From contig OZ287074.1 of the NCBI GenBank assembly GCA_965645245.1, positions 1,364,001 to 1,428,000 of the forward strand: a DNA stretch of 64,000 nt, read 5' to 3'. The stretch is from Massalongia carnosa (lineage: Eukaryota). Below are positions 13,333-51,793 of the stretch, piece by piece; position 1 is the first letter of the stretch; each line of letters opens with the position of its first letter. The notes below the pieces were generated by a model that made no database searches, was not told where the DNA came from, and was given only the letters and a program-made list of their open reading frames with translations. Position numbers and translations under genes: made by a program.

Positions 13333-15920
<2,588 letters not shown>

Positions 15921-16034
15921 CTTTATAGTCAGCAAAGTCCCAAAATGCGTTTCTAAGAGAGGAAATCAAGAGCGCGGTCTCGCATTCGATAACTAAGAAA
16001 GCTGACTCATCAGCCCTATGCTTGATGTCACTTC

Positions 16035-16200
16035 TTGCCTCAGTACCTCAGACGTGCGTGGCTCAATGAGCCGGCTAAGCCCCTCCGGGTTAGCCTATTT
16101 TCGCTAAGCCCCTTCGGGTTAGCGTCGCTGCTGACTAACATCAGTGCGATAGCACGTCTGAGCGCAAAACTCAAAATTACGGCCAGATCCGCGTAATAAA
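16035..16200 (+). repeat. Left TIR and structured subterminal region of the AcademH-like element
   Basis: Matches the reverse complement of 21951-22040 over 90 bp, and matches the MITE end at 49053 for about 165 bp (to CGTAATAAA). Confidence 0.93.
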
Positions 16201-16533
16201 AATTTTAGCAGTGCAATCATTCCTTTTATGGATTTAATACAATGATTAGGGTCGTATTAGTTTACCAGAGACTGTATTTTATACCAAAAACGCACCTCTC
16301 AAGATGGATGACTCGATAATCATGTGTTATAACTACTGTCAGGCTAAGAAAAGCGATGTGAAAGTCGATTAAGTGATAAATTGTTCGCTTTCGCTCAATT
16401 TTGAGGTTGATGAACTGATTATTTTCATGTGGCGCGATTACATTGAGTTACAAAGATCATGATGATATGAATAACGACGGCCAATCAATGGTATTGTATG
16501 ATTTATCTAGATTGAAGCTATCTGACGAAAGCC

Positions 16534-19211
16534 ATGGCTCTTGTCGGGGGCCCCTCCTCGCCACTTACCGACCTACGGACAAGTCCCTTGACTCCCGCCG
16601 GTGCGCTCAAGCGGCCCCACCCATCGCCGTCAGGCAGTAATGATAGCTCACCCTCTTCCTCCTCCCCTCCTGCCTTACCTGAAAAAAATGGAGGCGCGAA
16701 ACGCCACCGGCGGCGCATATCAGATTACGACAAGCTGGTTGAGGTGCTTAAATTTCTGAGCTCTCTAAATTGGTCGGTAAAAGATTTTTTATCAACACTT
16801 TGTAAGAATCGAGCCCGTCATAGTATGCGAAAGGCGCAAGGCCAGCTCTTCGATTTTGTCTATGTCGATATTGTGCGGCAAGAAGACTTTTCAAGCCTCA
16901 TTGGGCCTGGTAGAATATCCACTATCCTTCGCGAGAGAGGATGGGTTTGGGCCGCGGATGTGCTTCGTGAAAGAATCAAAGCTTTGGCAGATCACGCAGC
17001 CTTTGGCCCTTTCCAGCCGCCCTCTGCGACAGTCGAGTTTGGGACCTTGGAGGCTATTAAACTTGCTGCATCTGCCGCCAAGCAGTTGGCGCCACGATGG
17101 CTTGAGCTAATTGATAGTGTTTGTCGCGAGGCTCGCCCGCAGGAACCTCTCGATGTGACGTTGGATTCTCCCAGTGGCCGGCACACCGTTATATTGGCAA
17201 TGCTTTGTCACAAATTGCGACCAAATAAGGCGACCAATATTCAGTCCGTCTTAGGCCTTTATATTTATCAAGGTGGGGCGAGGCGGCGAGTTCTAGATAC
17301 ACTCTGTCATTTTGACCTGACGATGTCATATACTACCCTGCAGCGGCGCATGTTGTCCTTGATTAAGGAGGCCGAACGAAAGGTTCAGATGCTAGGACAA
17401 GGCTCAAACATGATCTTGACATACGATAACTTTGACTTCGCAGAAGGTAAACGAGGAGAGCGCACGGGGGATAATAGAGACGTCAGATCAATCACTACCG
17501 CTCTAATTTTCCAGGGGCAAGGATTCGATGCCGGCGCTTTGAGGCAGGATATGTGGCGCCCCGCCACGCATCTTTTATCAGCTGAAAGAATTGCGCGAAA
17601 GCTGGAGACTGGTGATCTCGAGATGCAGGTGAGTTCAATACAGGACGAGGTGTATATACCGCGCTCAATCGCTAATGCACCGCGTACCTAGATTCGTCTT
17701 CATCATCTAGAGTCAGCGATTCGAGCGCTTTATGGCCCAGAGATCGGCGACGTTCAACTTCCTTGGTCGACTGCAATGCCCGTGCTGAATAAGATGAAAA
17801 AATACAAGACCAATTACATTCCTATCAAACCAGTCATGAAGGATGAGAGCACAACATCTAATAATATTCAAATATTGGAGGATATATTTGTGCGACAGTT
17901 CAAGTTCAAGGAGGATGACTCGACGTTTGCGAGCGTCATTCGGCTTATCTATGGTGACCTCAAGACATGGTCGAGAATGCAATCTGTCAAGGAATTACGT
18001 CGTGGGATATCGGAGCAATCTTTCGATCGGTTCGACTGGATTTTACCGGGATTAGGGTTATGGCATCTTCGCTTTAACATGCTGCAGCTTATTCATAAAA
18101 TACATTGGGGAGAGGCCCAGCCGGTTGATCCTTCGACTCTTCAATATGCCGCCGATCGGTGGGGCCGCGCTCGTGTCGTGCAGCCGAACGATTTCCAGGC
18201 CTTAGAGGATCTGATCATTCAGAGCTATCAAGCTAGAATCGTTGGGACGTGGATTAGGTTTTTACGAAAGGATGGATATCTCCGCAGCGAATCGAAGCAA
18301 CTATTTCGTGGCTCACAGCGCAGACTTGCGGGCAGGATGGCACCTGGATGAATATGTTGGGCAGGATATCTCGCAAACTTCACGCGGAATTACCCTCAAC
18401 GTCAATAGATATGCTTCCTCCAACGCTTGATCAACAATTTCAGAATCATCAGAACTTCTGTGATCACGTTGAATCGTATCTAACACTTCGATACGCAATC
18501 AAATATGCGGATATTGGACTACTTCGTCACGCATTGCGCCACGCAACGGTGATCTTTCAGGCAAGCGTAGCTGGCACCCCGAAATATGCGCAAGCTCTTC
18601 TATACACCCTTCATGCGATTGATTCTTCCGCAGCGACCATAAGGCTACAGGAAAGTATTTTAATGAATAGTCTTGTCAATTTACGCGGTGACGAAGAGTC
18701 GAGTTTTGAGACTGATCGGCTTTTAGAGATACTAAACAATAACCTCAAGACGTTCCAGCACGAGCGATCTTATTTTTCAAAGTATAGTGACACCTTGCTC
18801 GAGAACTGGGCACTCAACGGTCCATATCTTATGAAGCTCAAAGAAATCGTTGAGTTTTACTTTGGAAGAGTCAACTCTTCAAGGCATCCAGCAAAATCGG
18901 CCGCAGAGGATGTGTGGGGCATGGCTACGGCACTAGCGCATAAATCACTCTGTAAAAGAAGCTATGATCGATTTTCAACTAATCCAACAGCTAATCTTTA
19001 TGTTGAGGGATTGAAGAAACTTGGAGAAAATGTATTAAAATACAATCAGCAGTATCTTTCCGAAGAAATTTCAAAAGAAATTTCAACAGACGACCTTGAG
19101 GGTAAGTATGAAGCCGAGCCCGATTTTGTCAATGAAACAAAGCAGGTCCCCGACAGCCCTGTCATTTCAATGGCCCGTCTCGAGATATCCGGCGGTATGT
19201 TTTTTGATTAA
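16534..19211 (+). pseudogene. DUF6589/Academ-type putative DDE transposase, about 870 aa if corrected; intron 17629-17691; one apparent -1 frameshift between 18258 and 18349
   Basis: Motifs typical of fungal DUF6589 proteins: LGLYIY..GA.RRV.DTL...LTMSYTT, LTYDNFDF, IYGDLKT, LGLWHLRFNML..IHKIHWG, LR.AIK.ADIG, KYA, NSLVN..G and ETD.LLE.LNN. The intron GTGAGT...GCTAAT...TAG joins ORF 16534 to ORF 17776 in frame. Confidence 0.8.
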
Positions 19212-19270
19212 ATCATCGATACCACGAGATAGCCTAGTCATGTAAATCCGCGCCGCGCGGCTTTACAGAG

Positions 19271-21446
19271 TCAGAGGTAGCGGACGGGGCACTTTCTTTC
19301 TTGTCTAGATCGTGTCGGAGGAAGGGCCATGGGTACATTCAGCGACAACGCTTCCATAGGATCTCGAGGCGCTTTTTTGGTCTTTGATGCCTTCATCGAT
19401 GATTTAAGAGCATCAACATTGTCAACAACGAGCGCCGCATCGGAGATATTGTGATTAGGCGCAGGATTCTCGCCCGATGGCTCCGTGCTCTCGCTTTCCT
19501 TCGAGACTTTCTTCTTGACCGCATTTCGCTTTTTAAAAACCTTTCTCGACATATATCCTTGTTTGATCATCCAGTTTTTCCTCCGTTCCTCAAATTCAAT
19601 ACTGGCGGAGTTGCATGTTAGGCTGGGTAATCGTTTTCTCTTTATGTCGTTGTGTCGTTTCCATTCCTCGAACATGTCTCCCTCGTCTAATCTCATTGCT
19701 TGACCCCGCTTTAAAATTTCTAAAAGCTCGGCGCCGTAGGGCCTAATACCAGTCCATGTGTTACCAATCCATCGCCGCATGGTGGGCTCGTCCACAATCT
19801 GATCCGCCCAAGTGGTCAAAGAATTCAGTACCTCATCGGGCATTATCAATGATGGGAAGTATCGCATATGTGAATTTGGGAACTTTTCCTGCGCCTTGGC
19901 CTCCCTCCATTCTCGAAGTTTAAGGGTGAACCAAGGCCGCCTAGACGAGTCACGCTCGGCCGTTCTATTTAACATCTCATTGGCGGCTGTTGATGTCTGA
20001 AAACTTGGATCGCAAATTGAACAGCAAGGTTGCGGCTTAACATAGGCCGACGTTGGATACACTTTATCATTGAAGAAATTCAAGCCAATACCTCGAACGC
20101 AACCATCTGAAGGCACATTGATTATCTCCCAAAGACCCGGTGGCATATCTCGTCGCCGATCAGCATCCTTTTGATTGATGCGGCGTTTACTGGCCTTGGA
20201 TTCAATCTCGATTCCCGCGTCATATCCGTCCTGTTCGTCCATTTTTGATCCGCTTCTTGGACCCATGCACCAAGAAGGATGCAAAAGAGTAAAATGCGCC
20301 TGTCCTCGACCGCAACGCAAAGCACGACCTAAACGTTGGTATAGCTTCGCCATTGACGAGGGTAGCAGCCATTGCGTAACTCTCATAACGTCTGGATTAT
20401 CAATACCAAGCCCGTATGCATCCGTTGCGATCAGGATTCGAGGAAATTTACATTGATTCGAGGGCATTTCGAAGCGAGCCGCAATCCTTTCTTTGTCTTG
20501 GGTGGCCATGTCGGAAAAGAAAGGCGCGACCCAACTAGCAGCCTCAATTGGATAGGACAATTGATTCATCCATACTTTCATTAGCGCACACGCCTTTTTG
20601 ATAGATGAAATTGAATCCATGAAGATAATCGTTTTCGGAATATCAAAAGGACTCTCAGCCCGTGTTGGTAAAAGATGTTGAAGATCGATCATGCTGTTCA
20701 TAGGCCGCTGTAGACTGCTTGTCTGTATGTATATCTCTGGACGATCAAGCGCTGTTTGAATAACAGTACTTTCGTTATCAAAGCCACAGCGATCTTTAAC
20801 GCTCTCTAGGGTTCTTGGATCCAGCGTTGCAGACGCACCCAGAAAAGGAATACCATCTGGTAATCGTGTACGAAGCACACCGAGATTGAAGTATTCGGGC
20901 CGGAAATCTCGCCATTCGGATACAAGATGCATCTCATCAAGAGCTAAAAGACATAAATTCAAGAAGAAACTTGGATGCCTCAGAACCTCCTGATTAAACA
21001 GCTTTGACGTCGCTATCTCTGGGCTAGTAAAAACTATTCATATTAACGAGTAAGTTTTTATATTTATCTCAATCATAATTTGAATACACACCATGCGTAT
21101 AATTGTTTTCACGAATTAACTTTAAATTAGAAGAATTATTACTATCACCGTCCAACACGAAAGGCTTGCATCCCTCGATAACGCTCAATTTCTTGCACTG
21201 TTGAGCTTCTAAGGTCTTGAGAGGCATGATAATTAAAGCGATCTTAAGACAAGAGAACATTAATGGCATAGCTTGAAAGATAATACTCTTTCCAAATCCA
21301 GTCTTGGCGATAAATATCAGATCCTTTTGATCTTGTGCTAAAGTCATGATAGCGTCAACTTGCTCATTCTTTGGATAAAAGCCGAATTTACTTAAAATCA
21401 CGGTCGTCACCTGCTCGCGAGTTATCGACGCTATAGGATCGTCCAT
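19271..21446 (-). CDS. Transposon-encoded RecQ-like SF2 helicase (about 705 aa; intron 21034-21091)
   Basis: Walker A AKTGFGKS, splice-restored VFTSPEIA, DEMH plus aromatic loop WRDFRPEY, motif III SATL, motif V ATDAYGLGID, motif VI QRLGRALR, Cys cluster C..R...PCCSICDP, and an HRDC-like LREWRE...IMPDEVL segment. Confidence 0.92.
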
Positions 21447-21879
21447 TTCGATGTGTTCGCGAGCGATATTCGACGATTCGCGAGTTGGATTCTTAGCCCG
21501 CAAAACGCACATCAAGCAAGTTCATCACATTCAACGATTTTAGGCTTTCGAAAACAACGCTCGGAGGATCAGATTAATGATCAGAAGCGCCGACAATGAA
21601 AAACTGGAGCTAGTGACCCGTTGAGTCTGCTGTGGTGGTGTCGAAATTTCGAGTCAAAGTCGAGTCCTCGTCGCGAGATCGATATTGCGACTCAATTTTG
21701 CATCGATATGTAATTAAAATATTGATTAATCGATAGAATGTATATCAAAGCATCATTTCTATTATTACATAATTTATGAAATGTCGTTGCGCGTTGTTGA
21801 TTCCGCCGTCAGCTTGATTCTTGATGATTTTTGAGGTTAAGCCAAAAATTTGTATGAGCGCGCACCAAAATAAGCCGGA

Positions 21880-22040
21880 TCTGACAAAAATACAGAGTTT
21901 TGCGCTCAGACGTGCCGCCCGTAGCATGCGTAGTCAGTCAGCTAAAGGGCCGCTAACCCGAAGGGGCTTAGCGAAAATAGGCTAACCCGGAGGGGCTTAG
22001 CCGGCTCATAGAGCCACGCACGTCTGAGGTACTGAGGCAA
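21880..22040 (-). repeat. Right TIR and structured subterminal region of the AcademH-like element
   Basis: Reverse complement of the left end over 90 bp, followed by a divergent arm and the conserved GCACGTCTGAGCGCAAAACTC block. Confidence 0.93.
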
Positions 22041-22062
22041 GTCACTTCTGAAGCAAGACGAC

Positions 22063-22447
22063 ATGAGATATGAAAGTATGGCCACAATGAGTCGTAGGCT
22101 TCGATTGGTACAGCCACTAAGGAGCGATTTTAAGTTCAAGTTCAGCAGACACGCTACTTCATCGACTACAGCCGAGCAAGCACCTAAATCATCATCCACA
22201 GTATGACTTGCCACCAAGCAGCAATCACACTCTTCCCTGACCACCACAGACTAAAGATATCCATCAACCTAAGGAAAAGGACAAATTTGCTAGGCCAAAG
22301 AAGACGATAGCAGAACTAGACGAAGAACTTCGGCTGAAGCTCGAGGGGGTATCTGGAGAGGGAGGTGAGGCGGGGTTGGAACTGGAGGATGGCAAGCCGG
22401 CGGCTATGAAGAGAGGAGTGAAAACCAATATGTTTCGTGTGATATAG
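22063..22447 (+). CDS. Small (about 111 aa) two-exon protein, possibly mitochondrial; absent from the ORF track
   Basis: Exon 1 (22063-22200) is Arg/Ser/Thr-rich like a presequence. Intron GTATGA...CTGAC...CAG at 22201-22249. Exon 2 reads KKTIAELDEELRLKLEGVSGEGGEAGLELEDGKPAAMKRGVKTNMFRVI*, resembling an uncharacterised conserved fungal C-terminus. Confidence 0.75.
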
Positions 22448-23419
22448 GAGGAGATTTTAGCACATATACGATGGATAATCGGTGAGAAAACGCGATTTCT
22501 GGATATTACATGTTGACTGGATGTCTATATTCTGACTCTGAAATAGCACCCTCAATACTCTGTTAAGAAAGCAAAAAATATATTTTTTCATATGCGACTG
22601 CGTGTCCACATCTTCACTGCCAAACAGTATCTTCGAGTGTCAGTCTAACAGGCACAAAATGATGTTTAATATCCAGCATAGGTTGATTTTAAATGCTTTC
22701 ATATTTTATCTACTTGGCCACATGTCTCCTACTCCATCTACCAACCTCTCCAATTGTTGACTCAATGATACTTCGACTTCTTCCTTTATCAGCTTCTCCT
22801 TTACTCGATTTAGTTACGTGTTTACTTTCCCTTCTAGCATGGCCAGTGCTATATATCTTGCCTTAGCATTCATGCCTCAACCAGTATCACAACTAGGGTA
22901 CCTGTTTACAGTTTAAACGGCAGTAAACAACAATCTCGTCAAACTCCAGAACCCCCTGTTCTAGATACCTATTTATTCTACCTAGAAGTGAATAGAGCGG
23001 TAGGAAGTGATCCATGGGGATGTCCTTCGGTTCTAGCTCCGTCGTTCTGATGTACGCTAGAATTTCCTTTTGACTTCATGTACTCGGAAGCGGCCTAGAT
23101 CTTCCCGCAAAGTTGTACTGGCGTAGCCTCCTGTGCCGCGACATTTTATGTTGCCTTTGTGGCCATTCTGCTCTAGCTGGGTGGTAAATGAAAGGGAAAA
23201 TGGGACGAAGGGAAGGTAGGCCTTGAAGACTCCATTGATACCTAGATAGCTAAACCATTTCGTTCTTACAGTGCAGCAATATTGTCCCGCCGCTCGGGAC
23301 TGATTGTTTGAAATTTTGGTACAGTTGCTTGAGATTCGCTCCATCTAACTAAATGGAGAGCCTTCTCTCATACCTGCAGGTTTGCTCGCTGTTACACGAG
23401 GTAGCACGGTAAGTAGGTA

Positions 23420-43005: not shown

Positions 43006-43122
43006 TGCTACTGCGATGCTGAAAGCTTTGGCATATATGACCGTAGAAGACAGACAAGCGGGGTCAGGGTGGTTAGGTCTGTTTATAAGGCGCGCAGGAG
43101 AGAATCACATCCTTTAAGATGA

Positions 43123-44493
43123 TTGCCTCAGTACCTCAGACGTGCCCGACTAAGCCCCTTCGGGTTAGTCTTACAGAACGTTAAGCCCCTTCGGGTTAAC
43201 AGGCTGACTACGCAGCACATCTGTAGCAAGTCTGAGCTTGCCTCAGTACCTCAGACGTGCCCGGCTAAGCCCCTTCGGGTTAGCCTTACAGAACGTTAAG
43301 CCCCTTCGGGTTAACAGGCTGACTACGCAGCACATCTGTAGCAAGTCTGAGCCCAAAACTCAAGATTACGGTCAGATATGGCTTAACGATCATGACAAGA
43401 ACGATTTCGACCTTATAGTACAACGTCACAACTTCATTGTTTTCATGTTTGTAACGTCGTCGTCGCTTGATATGATCATGATCAATGTATTTTTGATTTT
43501 TTCGTTATAAATTTCAATCTTTATTTATGTTTATAACGTGCAGAGCAATTTTACATACATCTTGTTATTTTCGTTAAGTCGATTCTCGATTTCTATGCGA
43601 AGTGCAATCAGATTGCCCCACATGAACTTTACAACGAACAGGAATTTCAGAAAAATTTCTATACAAATTCTGCTTGAAGTCTTTCGAAGAAATAGCCCGT
43701 GTCAAACGAAAAAGCAAGACGTCAAAATGTCGAAAAATCGCAATAATACACGATTTATTACGAATATCTGACCGTAATATTTAGTTTTGCGCTCAGACGT
43801 GCTATCGCAGCCACGTTAGTCAGCTGGGACGCTAATCCGAAGGAGCTTAGCTAAATAGGCTAACCCGGAGGGGCTTAGACGGCTCCTAGAGCCACGCACG
43901 TCTGAGGTACTGAGGCAAGTCTGAGCCCAAAACTCAAGATTACGGTCAGATATGGCTTAACGATCATGACAAGAACGATTTCGACCTTATAGTAAAACGT
44001 CACAACTTCATTGTTTTCATGTTTGTAACGTCGTCGTCGCTTGATATGATCATGATCAATGTATTTTTGAATTTTTCGTTATAAATTTCAATATTTATTT
44101 ATGTTTATAACGTGCAGAGCAATTTTACATACATCTTGTTATTTTCGTTAAGTCGATTCTCGATTTCTATGCGAAGTGCAATCAGATTGCCCCACATGAA
44201 CTTTACAACGAACAGGAATTTCAGAAAACTTTCTATACAAATTCTACTTGAATTCTTTCGAAGAAATAGCCCGTGTCAAACGAAAAAGCAAGACGTCAAA
44301 ATGTCGAAAATTTGCAATAATACACGATTTATTACGAATATCTGACCGTAATATTTAGTTTTGCGCTCAGACGTGCTATCGCAGCCACGTTAGTCAGCTG
44401 GGACGCTAATCCGAAGGAGCTTAGCGAAATAGGCTAACCCGGAGGGGCTTAGACGGCTCCTAGAGCCCACGCACGTCTGAGGTACTGAGGCAA
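43123..44493 (+). mobile_element. Non-autonomous MITE of the AcademH-like family (outer copy, 682 bp once the nested copy is removed)
   Basis: TTGCCTCAGTACCTCAGACGTGC...GCACGTCTGAGGTACTGAGGCAA termini. TSD TAAGATGA at 43115-43122 and 44494-44501. Confidence 0.93.
43238..43918 (+). mobile_element. Nested MITE copy (681 bp) inserted in the outer copy
   Basis: Has its own complete termini and TSD GTCTGAGC (43230-43237 and 43919-43926). About 12 differences from the outer copy. Confidence 0.9.
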
Positions 44494-44759
44494 TAAGATG
44501 ATGGTGGGGGGTCGTTGATTAGTCAGCGACGGCCCTTCAATCGATAACGTCAACAAGGGCCACGTGATCACTTGCATTGAAAGCAAAAGTCTCAAAACAT
44601 GCTAGTACGTTACTTAAGCTAAACATCACGTGTCTCCATCACTCGTTAATGAAAATGCCTATGCCCGGATAGGTATCTATTGGTGACGTCGATTCAATAC
44701 ACCACAATGCTATTACGAATGAAACGGAGATCGGGACTGCTGAAACTGATTATGCAGCC

Positions 44760-46067
44760 ATGGAGGTGATCGTCAATGCAATGGAAAACGAAACAGAAAG
44801 CCTCCCTTTACCGCTAAGTCCAAATCATGAAGCTAGAGTTTCAGCGTTGATGGATGCTCTTGCCAATGAAGAAGACGAAGACGAAGACGATGAAGTGGAT
44901 GATGGACTGGGGAAAGTGGTGGTGGAATACGACATGTACCTGAACAATCCTAGCAAACGACTTCTGCTTCTACAATACCCCAATCGAGAGCCTGGTCAAT
45001 CCTACAGCGATAAAACTGGAAACAAACCTCTAGAGTTGCGTATCAAACCTAAATGTGGTCTTGTGGAGGTTGATATCCCATTGAGCGTCCATGCCAATTT
45101 CGACAGGCACAAGGGCATAAACTTTGGGGCGGCAATGCGGAAGAGCCAAACCCTACAAGAAGGCGGTTCTTATGGGCTGTCTGGAGGGTTAAAGACTGCT
45201 GTTGGGCTTGGACCTGGACCGAGGGGTCAGCCTAGAAACAATGACCAAGAATCCGCACTAGAGGATGTTTCGCAGGACATGCTGCTAGACAACTTCGAAG
45301 AAGCAAATCAAAAAGGACACATTATGAACAAAATCATTCTCGGTGGCCAGATTGTCCCTTGGAAAGATGGGGATCCGATCTACATGATAGGAGTATTCCG
45401 AGGAAGTGAGCAAGCACCTTTTCGTCGACTAGCGTGTTCACGTGTCCTGTTCCTACGATAATGACACCCAAGGCAGACAAAGTATTTCTCAGCAAACTGG
45501 ACGCAATGGTTCAACTCCGACCACAGTTCAACCATTTAGATGCGCTAGGCGATCTAGACAAACAAGCCGTGAACCCCCGATCTAGAGGAGGCGCAGAAGA
45601 CGCTGCCGAAGAGCCGCAAGCAAGGGCTGTCAACATGACTGTCAAATCGACCGAGGTGGACGATATGGACGGGTATGGAGATACGAGTGAAACTGCCCGG
45701 CTGTTGAAAGCTATGCGAGAAGAACCATGGCAGCGTTTGGGCTGGATTGATTCCGAAGTGCGGTGTTCTTTTTCAATAGTGCAACAATGAAAGCTAACAC
45801 TCGCAGGACGACCATTCATACAGGATCTTCAACGATGAATTATTCATCCAAGACCCAGAGGCCGCGCCAACGCTGGTATCTACAATGACCGATGAGCAAT
45901 GGTTGGACGCTATCAGCTGTCCTCGCGTAGACCCCATCAATCAAGGCAAGAAGGTTATGAGACGGCTAAATATGGACAGTGATTTCTCTGATGATGACGA
46001 TGAGGATAAAAATCACAAGGGGCGAAGAGGTGCTAAAGGTGACCAATCCGATCAGGATAATGAATAG
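44760..46067 (+). CDS. RPC37: RNA polymerase III subunit Rpc5/C37 (Sin-like), 3 exons; start uncertain
   Basis: VVVEYDMYL, LLLLQYPNR, RIKPKCGLVEVDIPL, YMIGVFRG and VQLRPQFNHLD. Confidence 0.8.
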
Positions 46068-46755
46068 TATCTATGATCACGGATAATCTTGAAGCCGCCG
46101 CCAGGTCCAAGACGTGCAATGAGTTTACGCCCTCGCAAAACCGTACGCTCCGTTATTGTTTGCTATTTAATGGCATAGCGATAGGTGTTTGGAAGATTCT
46201 GAGATACCCATAGATCGCATGTAAAACAAGTACCATCCGATCTCGGAGGTGCAAGTAAGGAAGCTTAGCTTTGAAGGATATAATCACGTCTACAGGCAGG
46301 CCCTTTTCTGCTCGAGATTTTCAAGCCCCAGAATTGATTTGTTGAGACTGCAGCTCTCTAATCACTGAAAACGAGTACATACCGATCATGGCTCAACTTT
46401 CTCTATTTCGATATTGTATCATTATAGCCAGAAAGCATACCAAGCCTAATTTGATAGCGAGCTAGATCCAAAGCAGTATAACTGCTGCTGACAAATCAAG
46501 TTTATCCTTGCTTGATAGGATAAACTAGTATGCCCGTTGATTTACAATGTACCATTTGGTAATAGTGCGGATTTGTGTATCAGGATAAACTCTTTGTAAC
46601 AATTTGCACCGTACAATAGAGTACTTCGTACGTAAATCAGCCGTTTTTAATACTGCGCTATGCATCGACGCTAACTAGCCGAGTCGCTGTCATGCAGCAG
46701 CCACTGCCGCGTCGGGATGACGAAGTCCCGATGTCCAAGTTAATCGCGAATAACT

Positions 46756-48328
46756 ATGTCTCTGCCAGGTCTTCAGCTAAACGCACCCACAGAGCCTGTG
46801 CTGGCAACAACATTTCATGATATAGCAGAAAATACCGAATGGAGGTTTGAAGCCGCGTTTGGCTACAAAATTGAAGTCAAGGTGGGTCAATTGGACTTGG
46901 CGCGTATCCTTCGGAAGCCTTTAAAAGACGCTAATTTGGTTGCGGGATCTGCGCAGCTTCTTACCGGAGATGCTGAGCTCTTTGGGACCGAGTTGGCACC
47001 AAAGCAAACATACACCTTCACTGGCACCAAGGCAGCAATATACACCTGGCATGGGTGTCGAATCGAGGTGGTGGGCGAATGCCAAGCCGAGTATCTCGCT
47101 GAAGAGACCCCCATGACGAGCTACGCAAACCTGCATTTTGGACTGGAGCGGCTACGCAGTCTGGTCACTGCTGATGGGGCTGATGGTCCTAGGGTGCTGC
47201 TCTTGGGCCCGGAGAATGCTGGGAAAACAAGTCTGGCCAAGCTTCTGACCGCATACGCGACGAAAGCGGGTCGAGAGCCTGTGACGGTAAATCTTGATAC
47301 AAAGGAAGGCATGCTAAGCATACCAGGAACCTTGACTGCAGCATCTTTCTCGTCTATTGTTGATGTTGAACAAGGCTGGGGAACCGGCCCTACTAGCGGA
47401 CCTAGCCAAGTCCCCGTCAAATTGCCCCTCGTCTACTTCTACGGCATGGCAAATCCAGAGGAAAATGCGCCTCTTTACAAAGCAATTGTTACCCGGCTAG
47501 CTGTATCCGTTGTGAGCAGATTGCAGGATGAGCAGGGAGCAAAGGAGGCTGGCTGCATCATCGACACGCCAGGGATTATTAGCCAGGGGAAAGGAGGCTA
47601 CGACGTGATTCAGCATATCGTTTCTGAGTTTTCAGGTTAGTATCTCGGTCTTGAGAGCTGAACTAGAAGGTTTTTTGCTAAGCTTTATGATCTACAGTCA
47701 ACCTATTAGTAATCATCGGCTCTGAGCGACTGTATAGTGATATGCTACGGCGATATAATGGGCATAGCACTGGCGGTGGGGAGCCTATAACAATCGTCAA
47801 ATTGGACAAGTCCGGGGGATGCGTAGATCGAGATGATGGCTACATGCGGCAGTTTCGCCAGGCCCAAGTTCGTGAATATTTCTTTGGTGATGCCAAGAAC
47901 GACCTCAGCCCGCATACCCAACAACTCGACTTTAGTCAGCTCAATATCTACAAAATCGCCGAAAGTGAGTGGTACATGTCACCTTTTTTTTTCCCGCCAT
48001 CAATGCTAAACCTTTCCTCCTAGCCTCGACGCCTTCCACGTCGCTGCTCCCCGGAGGAGACGTAGAAGAGCCATCGGGACCTCCAATCTTCAACAAGGTG
48101 CCTCCTTCGCCCCAAATGCAGAACTCCATCCTCGCCCTCGTCCAAGCAAATCCAAACGACAACCAAGAAGCTATCCGGGATGCGAGCGTCGTAGGCTTTA
48201 TCTACGTGGCGGAAGTAGATGAAAAGAAAAAGAAGGTGAAAATTCTCGCCCCCATGAGCGGCCGATTGCCGGTCAAAGCGATGATCTGGGGCTCGTGGCC
48301 AGAAGACGTCGGGAGTTTGGTGGATTGA
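46756..48328 (+). CDS. CLP1: mRNA cleavage and polyadenylation factor Clp1, multi-exon
   Basis: EWRFE, GDAELFGTELA, AAIYTWHGC, P-loop GPENAGKTS, GCIIDTPG and KLDKSGGCVDRD. Confidence 0.94.
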
Positions 48329-49052
48329 TGGAAGAGATTTCGCCGATTTAGGGACATGACCCTCGTGGAGCGTCCTTCTGGTTCGTCTGTAATGGAGCGG
48401 TAGCCGCTTCTACTACTAGGAGAGCATTACAAACCAGGTAGAAAGCAAGAACAGCTCTTGCTGCGGAATGACGCGTTAACATCTCTCGATCTTCTGACAC
48501 TTTCGGTTCGCGTTTCTTACCAAGCATTATTTCTGTACAGAGGTAGATGGTCGAAATAATCAAAAGCAGCCATCATCGAATTCCTGCTACCTAGCCAAAC
48601 GTGTTAACTATCGAAACACGCCATGTTGCGTGCCGTTGTGGCTTTCCCCTGCAACGTGTTTTTGATCTCTCTATCATAGATAGGTATAATTGATTAATCC
48701 GCAATATATTTTACTTATGCCAGGTACATCAAAGCTAGCTATTCATTCTCTGAAAGACCGCCAAACTCTAGTTAGAAACTACGTACAGCCGGAACGTGAT
48801 ATCATGACCAAGCTCTACGATAGATAGATCGGTACTCTGTACACATCTCTCACGACATAACACCTGCGGCTGAGCGTGAAGAACGTGGTTGCATAGTTTT
48901 TCCATGTCGTTTTACCCAAGATCAACCAAACCATGCACCCATTTGCAGACGAGCGAGCTTTTGCTGATCATCTTCAACCTATGTATGTCAACCCGACGAT
49001 GGTTAGATGCCGAAATCAGCTGACAAAGCAATTTGCATCTACTACGGTGGAC

Positions 49053-49734
49053 TTGCCTCAGTACCTCAGACGTGCGTGGGCTCTAGGAGCCGTCTAAGCC
49101 CCTCCGGGTTAGCCTATTTCGCTAAGCTCCTTCGGATTAGCGTCCCAGCTGACTAACGTGGCTGCGATAGCACGTCTGAGCGCAAAACTAAATATTACGG
49201 TCAGATATTCGTAATAAATCGTGTATTATTGCAAATTTTCGACATTTTGACGTCTTGCTTTTTCGTTTGACACGGGCTATTTCTTCGAAAGAATTCAAGT
49301 AGAATTTGTATAGAAAGTTTTCTGAAATTCCTGTTCGTTGTAAAGTTCATGTGGGGCAATCTGATTGCACTTCGCATAGAAATCGAGAATCGACTTAACG
49401 AAAATAACAAGATGTATGTAAAATTGCTCTGCACGTTATAAACATAAATAAATATTGAAATTTATAACGAAAAATTCAAAAATACATTGATCATGATCAT
49501 ATCAAGCGACGACGACGTTACAAACATGAAAACAATGAAGTTGTGACGTTTTACTATAAGGTCGAAATCGTTCTTGTCATGATCGTTAAGCCATATCTGA
49601 CCGTAATCTTGAGTTTTGGGCTCAGACTTGCTACAGATGTGCTGCGTAGTCAGCCTGTTAACCCGAAGGGGCTTAACGTTCTGTAAGACTAACCCGAAGG
49701 GGCTTAGTCGGGCACGTCTGAGGTACTGAGGCAA
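49053..49734 (-). mobile_element. MITE copy (682 bp), inverted relative to the 43-44 kb copies
   Basis: Same termini. TSD CGGTGGAC at 49045-49052 and 49735-49742. Shares the diagnostic variants of the reconstituted outer copy. Confidence 0.94.
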
Positions 49735-51793
49735 CGGTGGACGGGCATAAATACGAGCACTTTTACCCTGCCTAATGGTAGATAGTCAATTGTTTCTTCT
49801 AGTCTCTTTGCATGTGCAAAACTCGTTTGTCGATCTAACTATATCAATTGCTCAGTCCTATCATTCCGTCTGTTACAGTCACAGTTCAAACAGGTTATGA
49901 GCTGATCAGCTAGACCGGATGATTGATTTGTTCCACCAAAACCCAATCCAGAAACGATTTCAATGAAGTTCACTTCAGAAAACACCGTTGAGGGCCGTGA
50001 CGGTCGGGCAATCGAGTCGCCCGATAATGCCGGAAATGGGCAACAGTCCCAGGTGTTGGATGACACCTACCAAAGGGTTTCCTGAAGGTAGACATAAAAT
50101 TTGCCAAACTGAGCCGGAATAGCTATCAGTCCTAGGCTAGAAACATGAGGATATCCCTAGACGCGAAGCTGTTATGGGGGTCAAGAAAGGAGCTGTTAGA
50201 GGAGACTGGGCCGGGAATTTGAATTGGTGCTGTGGAGACGTCTGTCTGCTTTTTTCTATTTCTGACCAACCAATCTAAAAGAGCCTCTAAAGCCTGCTTA
50301 GATGTCATCGATACGTTTGAACCCTGCGGCAGGGTGGTTTTTTGCAGGATAGGTGTAAACTAAATGGAGCCTGAACCATGACATTACCTCAAGGCTTGAG
50401 CGGGTATTCTGGCAAGCAGATTGAGGAAGGGTGATTTAGGGACTTTCTTCGTACCGTGAGCTGTGAAGGAGATTGGTGTTTGGAAGGGAGAAGCTTCTCC
50501 AGACGGAACGTGTGTTATCAATCTTGTATGCCGGGCGTGATCCAAATGATCTGAACCTTCGCGCCGAATGGATACAGCCGATGCTGGAGGCAAAATTTAT
50601 CCAGGAATTGGATATTGAAATCCGGGCCAAGTTCGATCTGGTTCCTAGGGAGCAGCTCTTCGCTCTCCAACAGGATCTGAACCAAAGTTTCAGGGGTTGA
50701 TGGTGATACCTTGGCTGGTTCCGAGGACGTTATTGATGGATTTTAGAGAATGGTTTTCTATCTAAGCGTACCATTCAATCCTTTTTCTACATGCAATGTC
50801 TGGCTCCGTCCCTGTATCCATACTGCTGCACTTAGACAATGTAAGTAAGTCATATTTCATGATTTCCTTGGGGCTGACAGTTGTCAAACAGTAATTATTG
50901 ACGGTTATTATGTATGACAACCATTAAATATGATTTTCTAACTCTGTTTTTTCCCATCATCTTTGATTTCTTCATCCCTCTTTTCTCTCATAGGTACACA
51001 CAAAGAATAGTTCCGAACTGTTTGGTTGCCTATACCAATCTAAAATCTGGTTTCCGAAGTCGTCCAGCATTAAAAGCATACAGAAAACACATATCAAATA
51101 TAGGGACAAGAAGATAGGATATGCGAGTGTTTGGAGATTCGAAACTTGGAAGTGTCTATGTAGGTTACTATGGGGTTCATGACAGAAACCACTCATGCTA
51201 CCCCAACTGCGACTCTTTACCCTCTTATATCTAGTATTAAAAGATCTCCCTCTTTTTTCCATCCATCACTTCTTGTACCTATTTCCACACCCCTATACCT
51301 ACCCACCTCCCTACCTCCCACCTTTCTACCTGTCTATCTTCTCCTCCTCATTTTCTAACTTCTTGATCATCATTTCGTCTTTGATACAGAAATGATGCGG
51401 ACAAGGATTGAAACGTAGAATGTCAACAGCCAAACCGCAAATAGAGATATGACAACGGAAAATTGGAGCTTGGAGAAGTACGAGAGTAAATGACTTGTCG
51501 TTGGTGCATGTAAAACATCAAACTCTGTGAAATCGTGCAGCTCATACTTTAAAGACAATAAATGGACTGAATCGTAAAATTCCAGACAGGGATTTTAGCT
51601 TCGAATGGGTCATGATTTCATTTTTGAAACAATATAGATCACATCTTATACTCGATACATTCATAACGAGGATTGAGAAAGAACCAATACAATAGCCATC
51701 ACACGTGAAGTTCAGCTTGAACGAGATCCATTTAAACCTGTCCTTCTATGAAACATCATGTGAACTAGAAATCAAGCAAGCAAAATAGCAAGC

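Follow-up and report, generated by a model that had tools for sequence, protein, structure and literature searches.

The AcademH lineage of DNA transposons was reportedly described by Kojima in 2020, in Mobile DNA 11:15. In the accessible part of PMC10799480, AcademH is a source of DEAD and Helicase_C domains, is present in Basidiomycota, Ascomycota and Mucoromycota, and is of low copy number in fungi. KolobokH, taken here from its description in the same source, is likewise a DDE lineage with a DEAD/Helicase_C helicase, but its transposase belongs to another superfamily. The target site duplication (TSD) is given as 9–10 bp for AcademH and 3–4 bp for AcademX in the accessible part of PMC10045372. 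AcademH and KolobokH are known from sequence only. Here we describe a 6,006-bp element at positions 16035–22040 of a 64,000-nt stretch of contig OZ287074.1 of Massalongia carnosa; this whole stretch is the window, and its positions serve as coordinates throughout. Compared with AcademH by description, the element is similar in having terminal inverted repeats (TIRs), a probable DDE transposase and a separate superfamily 2 helicase (DEAD, Helicase_C), AcademH being found in fungi that include Ascomycota. It differs in that its TSD is 8 bp in place of 9–10 bp, and in that its family is multi-copy, with miniature inverted-repeat transposable elements (MITEs) and many deletion derivatives, where AcademH is low-copy in fungi. 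We consider it highly probable that the element is a copy of a multi-copy, recently active Academ-type cut-and-paste DNA transposon family of a probable lichen-forming ascomycete, encoding a DUF6589 transposase and a RecQ-like helicase.

The ends of the element are well defined. Inverted-repeat and tip searches place the 95-nt inverted ends at 16035–16129 (+ strand, with the tip TTGCCTCAGTACCTCAGACGTG) and 21946–22040 (– strand). As computed, the TIR arms are 16034–16129 and 21946–22041, that is 96 nt with 97% complementarity, and internal to them there is another inverted block, of 40 nt. A perfect 8-bp TSD, GTCACTTC, occupies 16027–16034 on the left and 22041–22048 on the right. The same window holds three MITEs of the family, and the 8-bp duplication is perfect at each of the four insertions. 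For the 30-nt tip there are six occurrences in the window where 0.00 are expected. A near-palindromic 19-nt subterminal motif, CTAAGCCCCTYCGGGTTAG, has 16 matches against 0.01 expected; every one lies in an element end, with two in each of the eight ends. In the large element these are at 16075–16093 and 16104–16122 (+ strand) and at 21953–21971 and 21982–22000, and they are putative binding sites for the transposase. An earlier reading of this DNA, made from the sequence alone, had described a 6,006-bp element with TIRs, a TSD and two convergent spliced genes, accompanied by three non-autonomous copies with shared termini. This anatomy is borne out: both genes were found, with introns that are predicted, and the non-autonomous copies are MITEs of 681–682 bp, each with its own 8-bp TSD.

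We compared the window with contigs from coded public sequencing runs, X3 to X7, of which X5 is labelled as a lichen metagenome. In X5 a 33,713-nt contig at depth 25.2 covers 15000–16026 and 22041–23000 without a break, with one GTCACTTC and no element. Mobility is shown directly by this empty site with its single target copy, which the sequence-only reading had proposed to look for in other isolates. The insertion is present in X4, where contigs pass from the flank into the element at both sides, and in X6 a contig begins exactly at 16035 with another flank. In three runs the element has a much greater contig depth than its flanks. Summed over contigs it is about 200–330 against 25 in X5 (roughly 8–13-fold) and about 130 against 4 in X3, values that are not copy numbers. 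There are many joints that skip internal sequence, such as 16100 to 21952, 16146 to 21936 and 16351 to 19231, which have the look of internal-deletion derivatives. At the protein level the P0001 cluster, whose representative is near-identical to the transposase, has 72 members. The size of the largest contig, from 1.27 to 3.77 Mb, differs for 14 of the 15 members that are listed; P0040 is on seven contigs.

Tip and repeat searches identified a 682-bp MITE at 49053–49734 (+ strand), with TSD CGGTGGAC at 49045–49052 and 49735–49742, and a second 682-bp MITE on the – strand that is split into 43123–43237 and 43919–44493, with TSD TAAGATGA at 43115–43122 and 44494–44501. The interruption is a third MITE of 681 bp, at 43238–43918, with TSD GTCTGAGC. 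The outer MITE (43123–44493) is 100% identical over 584 + 115 nt to that at 49053–49734, in the opposite orientation, and the nested copy is 98% identical. The nested insertion, and the pair of copies that do not differ at all, point to recent activity. The family is thus mobile, multi-copy and recently active, and the earlier description of a recently active TIR transposon with its own MITE family is upheld by the empty site, the nested MITE and the identical pair.

The transposase gene lies on the + strand. Its first exon (16534–17628, 365 codons, from the open reading frame (ORF) and splice prediction) contains YDNFDF, the block with the first predicted catalytic residue, D298. A 63-nt intron (17629–17691) with an in-frame stop is predicted from its splice sites, GTGAGT..CTAAT..TAG. 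The second exon (17692–19211), assigned by Pfam and contig comparison, carries DUF6589 and the blocks YGDLKT (D454), LWHLRFN (H490) and DRLLE (D707, E711). DUF6589 is the only Pfam family detected in the gene (E 2e-35 and 2.7e-24), and its two pieces score 122.8 and 86.1 bits against a gathering threshold of 27 for PF20231. The Pfam check that had been suggested, for DUF6589, DEAD and Helicase_C, therefore gave all three, the latter two in the helicase. NCBIfam gave no match for the transposase. A word-index search of exon 1 against longer proteins likewise gave none, in a collection that is mostly unspliced ORFs, and a search of the ESM Atlas returned DUF6589 clusters only, mostly from Basidiomycota.

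The element had been called complete, and this is where the sequence-only reading fails. The reading frame of exon 2 is broken by a 1-bp deletion, a missing G at 18279–18280 that is private to the window copy. The window reads ..GGATAT|CTCCGC.. at 18279, where the near-identical P0001 protein has ..KDGYAPQRIEA... P0001, 99–100% identical, is continuous across the break (..RKDGYAPQRIEA..), as are more distant relatives. In all four other public runs that cover the site, every contig has the extra G behind 18279, with depths of 25024.5/25024.5 in X4, 118.5/118.5 in X3, 278.3/278.3 in X5 and 2.6/2.6 in X6. The site is not a homopolymer, which makes an assembly error less likely than a genuine deletion private to this copy. 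In the sequence as it stands the ORF has 584 residues and stops ahead of the third catalytic residue, against 871 residues when read through with an X. The window copy is therefore structurally whole but not complete; with its transposase truncated before E711, it probably relies on other, intact copies in the genome. At 16217, 16710, 16972–16973, 17175 and 21812, too, all or nearly all contigs from the other runs differ from the window, and so the window copy has, in addition to the frameshift, a few substitutions of its own.

What kind of protein is DUF6589? Pfam labels PF20231 as of unknown function. A search with the full-length relative P0034 (838 aa, from a lichen fungus) against 1.84 billion representatives gave 1,032 proteins at E ≤ 0.001, and DUF6589 is the only Pfam family in 18 of 18 full-length relatives. 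An AlphaFold2 model of P0034 from a 34-row alignment (predicted local distance difference test score 77.8, predicted template modelling score 0.77) has the order β1-β2-β3-α1-β4-α2-β5, followed by a long all-helical region and then the predicted catalytic helix. The strands are at 297–308, 320–331 and 394–396, with a helix at 407–421, a strand at 434–440, another helix, a strand at 469–473 and the late helix at 685–702. Among solved structures VIA-align ranks the P element transposase 6p5a first (Z 10.1 over 345 residues, root mean square deviation 5.8), followed by Hermes (8.5), ISCth4 (7.4), RAG1 (7.1) and Transib (7.0). DDE transposases fill the first 37 rows without exception, after which Z falls to 3.1. 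Foldseek also places 6p5a first (E 5.8e-3, probability 0.97), then Hermes, RAG1 and Transib.

The putative triad falls where such a fold would have it, with D302 on the first strand, D441 where the fourth one ends, and E690 on the late helix (P0034 numbering). In an HMM (hidden Markov model)-guided alignment of 203 rows from 196 proteins, the first D is conserved in 68/69, the N that follows in 69/69 and the second D in 130/133; H477 is found in 132/134, D686 in 135/139, E690 in 132/138 and N693 in 137/138 (P0034 numbering). The corresponding predicted catalytic residues of the window transposase are D298, D454 and E711, in read-through numbering. The evidence that DUF6589 is an RNase H-like DDE transposase with near-invariant D/D/E and a large all-helical insertion domain is strong but circumstantial. 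The Pfam-matched region would then be the C-terminal two thirds of the enzyme, the first catalytic D lying upstream of it. The motifs put forward earlier as candidates for catalysis, YDNFD, GDLKT and ETD..LE, are exactly the blocks that hold the conserved residues, and the RNase H fold that had been named as a check emerges in the model. To speak of direct evidence for a DUF6589 transposase, as the sequence-only reading did, was an overstatement; anatomy, fold and empty site are circumstantial. The one paper in the searched literature that mentions DUF6589 presents it, in its accessible part, as a domain enriched in pathogenic fungi, which may be a factor in virulence or may regulate effector expression epigenetically. 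Because DUF6589 reads as a transposase domain, this enrichment probably reflects transposon load.

The second gene of the element is convergent with the first. On the – strand, exon 1 (21092–21446, with the Walker A motif GFGKS; ORF, Pfam and splice prediction) is followed by a 58-nt intron (21034–21091) predicted from its GT..AG splice sites, and by exon 2 (19271–21033 including the stop codon; ORF and Pfam) with the DExH box, Helicase_C and a Cys-rich tail. The spliced ORF is intact from 21446 to 19271 and encodes 705 aa. Pfam finds DEAD and Helicase_C, and no match in the 340-aa C-terminal half. Among proteins of solved structure E. coli RecQ comes first (8.6e-17), ahead of WRN, RECQ5 and RECQ1; these matches span E 1e-16 to 1e-12. 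The TIGR00614 recQ_fam model matches with E 8.5e-28, but exon 2 scores 97.3 bits and exon 1 scores 31.4 bits against a curated cut-off of 219.8, so that the protein falls outside the family. It shares with RecQ (1oyw), WRN, RECQ5 and RECQ1 a helicase core in which two RecA-like domains are combined with a DExH box (DEMH), but no RQC or HRDC domain was detected and the score is far under the RecQ cut-offs. On this sequence comparison the helicase is RecQ-like and not a bona fide RecQ orthologue, and the RecQ helicase of the sequence-only reading is upheld in that form by the match to E. coli RecQ and to TIGR00614.

We have considered whether the helicase is captured cargo, a host RecQ-type gene with no role in transposition, and think this unlikely. 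In its favour, the MITEs move without a helicase. With a transposase profile from the narrower alignment A2 we collected 36 metagenome loci; a helicase match lies downstream on the opposite strand in 17 of the 36, and in 14 of the 22 where at least 8 kb of downstream sequence is available, leaving eight of these 22 with no detectable helicase. In X5, moreover, the derivative joined from 16351 to 19231 (depth 82.6) has lost the whole transposase ORF and keeps the helicase gene and both ends, so the two genes are separable. Against cargo, the same convergent gene order recurs with transposases that are only 25–47% identical to that of the window, and the helicase diverges in step with the transposase, at 23–51% identity. 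A protein so far under the RecQ cut-offs is no recent copy of a host RecQ, and the helicase is intact in the window copy although the transposase is broken. In addition, for seven helicase homologues the longest contig is equal in length to that of DUF6589 matches (10605, 5685, 10167, 6339, 12760, 5918 and 3745), which suggests that the two lie on the same contigs. We therefore regard the helicase gene as the element's conserved second gene, not as a passenger. Our best guess at its role is an accessory one, in opening or remodelling structured ends or in handling the donor gap. In a distant branch of the relatives (L013, L014, L015, L021, L023, L025 and L027, with transposases 25–30% identical) the helicase is about 7 kb downstream of the transposase match, and the pairing persists down to transposases of only 25–27% identity. 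At such a distance the elements must be much larger, with room for genes beyond these two, which they may carry.

The assignment of the transposase to Academ comes from the RNase_H_Academ HMM in the supplement of PMC5751038 (465 nodes, 44 sequences), whose consensus we compared with the DUF6589 proteins over 7 of its approximately 19 parts. Five blocks match in the same order. At β1, nodes 2–7 (f-D-N-w-D-i, with D and N at a probability of about 0.9) correspond to YDNFDF. At β3, nodes 151–153 (Y-V-p) correspond to the Y.P ahead of the DEST helix, and at β4 nodes 186–192 (v-v-l-t-g-d-q) to L.YGDQKT. Following β5, nodes 220–224 (g-f-F-H-i) match GLFHL, and on the putative catalytic helix nodes 450–454 (D-e-a-l-E) with K462 match DRLLE..N...K. 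The spacing of the blocks is similar for the second D to H (32 nodes, 36 residues) and for the second D to E (263 nodes, 249 residues). In parts 2 and 6 of the HMM no block could be confidently aligned with the DUF6589 proteins. These five collinear blocks provide good motif-level evidence that DUF6589 is an Academ-type transposase domain. The presence of TIRs and of a TSD is as expected of the Academ superfamily, and the DEAD plus Helicase_C helicase beside the transposase is that expected of AcademH.

A number of points weigh against an Academ-type element of this kind. The comparison with the HMM is one of consensus letters by eye over the parts covered, at the level of motifs, and the spacing between the first and second D is 188 nodes against 139 residues. 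The TSD is not the 9–10 bp of AcademH but 8 bp, in four of four window insertions and at the empty site. The Foldseek E-values are weak, at about 6e-3. The transposase of the window copy is broken, the introns of both genes are predicted and their expression is presumed, and there are the eight relatives with enough flank that have no helicase match.

These points bear on the possibility that DUF6589 elements are not Academ and form a superfamily of their own, as yet undescribed, which is related to P elements and hAT and gained its helicase independently. We regard this as rather improbable. The nearest solved folds are indeed those of the P element transposase and then Hermes, and an 8-bp TSD is found in P and hAT, unlike either Academ lineage as given in the accessible part of PMC10045372. 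Furthermore, the accessible text of PMC5751038 states that the Academ domain matched no Pfam family in 2017, the searched literature contains no paper linking DUF6589 to Academ, and a search of the supplements of PMC10799480 gave no PF20231, DUF6589 or AcademH. The likeness to the P element transposase of Drosophila (6p5a, 6pe2) extends to the RNase H core, a large insertion before the catalytic E and the 8-bp TSD. The P element transposase, too, has a D-x-x(x)-E type block on its catalytic helix. Yet the sequence identity is 10–12%, and the P element has no helicase gene. The THAP and P-element Pfam families of the P superfamily are missing from the window protein, which has DUF6589 only. For hAT the TSD length fits and Hermes is the second structural match at Z 8.5, but Pfam finds no hAT domain. 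None of the 18 full-length relatives has a THAP, Tnp_P_element or hAT dimerisation domain by Pfam. The five collinear blocks, including the invariant D-N..D and D-x3-E, agree with the Academ consensus in the parts compared, and a transposase with a DEAD/Helicase_C helicase is the gene content given for AcademH in PMC10799480, as far as its text was accessible. The term AcademH-like in the sequence-only reading can thus be kept for the Academ motifs and the helicase, and not for the TSD. Its view of AcademH as reported mainly from animals and non-ascomycete fungi is at odds with PMC10799480, which in its accessible part lists Ascomycota.

If the family is Academ-type, the following mechanism may be proposed. 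The 871-aa DUF6589 transposase would bind the element at its 95-nt inverted ends, where the pair of near-palindromic 19-nt motifs probably serves as the site of contact, and would excise it and insert it at target cuts with an 8-bp stagger. The helicase of 705 aa may remodel or unwind the ends, or help in the processing of donor or target DNA. The 681–682-bp MITEs, which keep the ends only, would be moved in trans by enzyme from intact copies, and the frameshifted window copy would presumably use enzyme from intact copies elsewhere.

One contig of X4 has an unexpected structure. It runs from the tip at 22040 through CCGGAAGG, exactly eight foreign bases, to the tip at 16035, at depth 423.8, about half the 816–864 of the single-copy flank. 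The tips being inverted repeats, the joint may involve either end on each side, and the contig could be a tandem pair with a common target site or a circular form. The eight-base spacer has the length of the TSD. We see only a slim chance that the family moves by something beyond simple cut-and-paste, the contig being an excised circle or an active tandem junction and the helicase driving replicative copy-out as in bacterial copy-out/paste-in insertion sequence elements. If that were so, copy-out would explain why a DDE transposon retains a helicase and why there are so many identical copies. End-to-end tip junctions were found neither in the window nor in the 36 metagenome loci.

The notion that these are two fixed host genes between chance repeats has nothing in its favour beyond the length of both ORFs, and can be set aside in view of the X5 empty site with a single target copy, the four perfect 8-bp TSDs, the excess depth over the element in three runs and the different flank in X6.

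The Academ-type reading has several consequences. It provides a working function for a widespread Pfam family of unknown function, represented by the 1,032 proteins of the P0034 search, and by fold it would place the P element transposase closer to an Academ-type enzyme than any other solved structure. The TSD of 8 bp suggests that the lineage has a target spacing unlike that of both described Academ lineages. AcademH and KolobokH being known from sequence only, the window family offers material for testing what the helicase does. Besides autonomous copies in intact and in broken form, it includes identical MITEs, one insertion within another, derivatives with internal deletions and a site that is naturally free of the element. 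An assay of excision and integration, run with the helicase and without it, would find in these its donor, its reporter and the footprint to expect.

How widely are the ends of the element conserved? Near-identical copies of 16035–21491 are present in X3, X5, X6 and X7, under at least four coded organism labels plus the lichen metagenome. In X6 all eight contigs are at least 99% identical to the element, and this run has the element without the window flank. Such copies across labels could reflect the same fungus, close relatives or horizontal spread. Among the metagenome loci, L001, with a transposase 47% identical, is an 11.1-kb element (L001:2130–13272) of 34% G+C that has the same TTGCCTCAG tip and TIRs of 156 nt. 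Its flanks, GTTTTTTT and GTTTCTTT, match as a TSD at 7/8 positions, and it keeps the GCTAAG..TTAGC subterminal motif. At 11.1 kb and 34% G+C it looks degraded by repeat-induced point mutation (RIP). By self-BLAST of the 36 loci, long TIRs around the genes are found in L001 only; TIR pairs also occur in L016, L024, L027 and L035, some of which belong to another element. A scan of the 36 for exact 10-mers with a TSD gave nothing convincing. Relatives with transposases 30–47% identical nevertheless keep the tip TTGCCTCAGT together with the CAGACGTG block that follows. Conserved right ends lie at L007:13443, L008:6189, L009:13418, L034:13553 and L035:14245, and a left end at L026:1652; these loci, L007–L009, L026, L034 and L035, have single TTGCCTCAG ends for which the partner end was not found.

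Within the window a Myb/CEF1-like gene adjoins the large element. Further along, at 43115–49742, the two identical and oppositely oriented MITEs, which are independent insertions, flank 4.6 kb of host DNA with RPC5-like and CLP1-like genes, and such an inverted pair could in principle mobilize or invert the segment between them.

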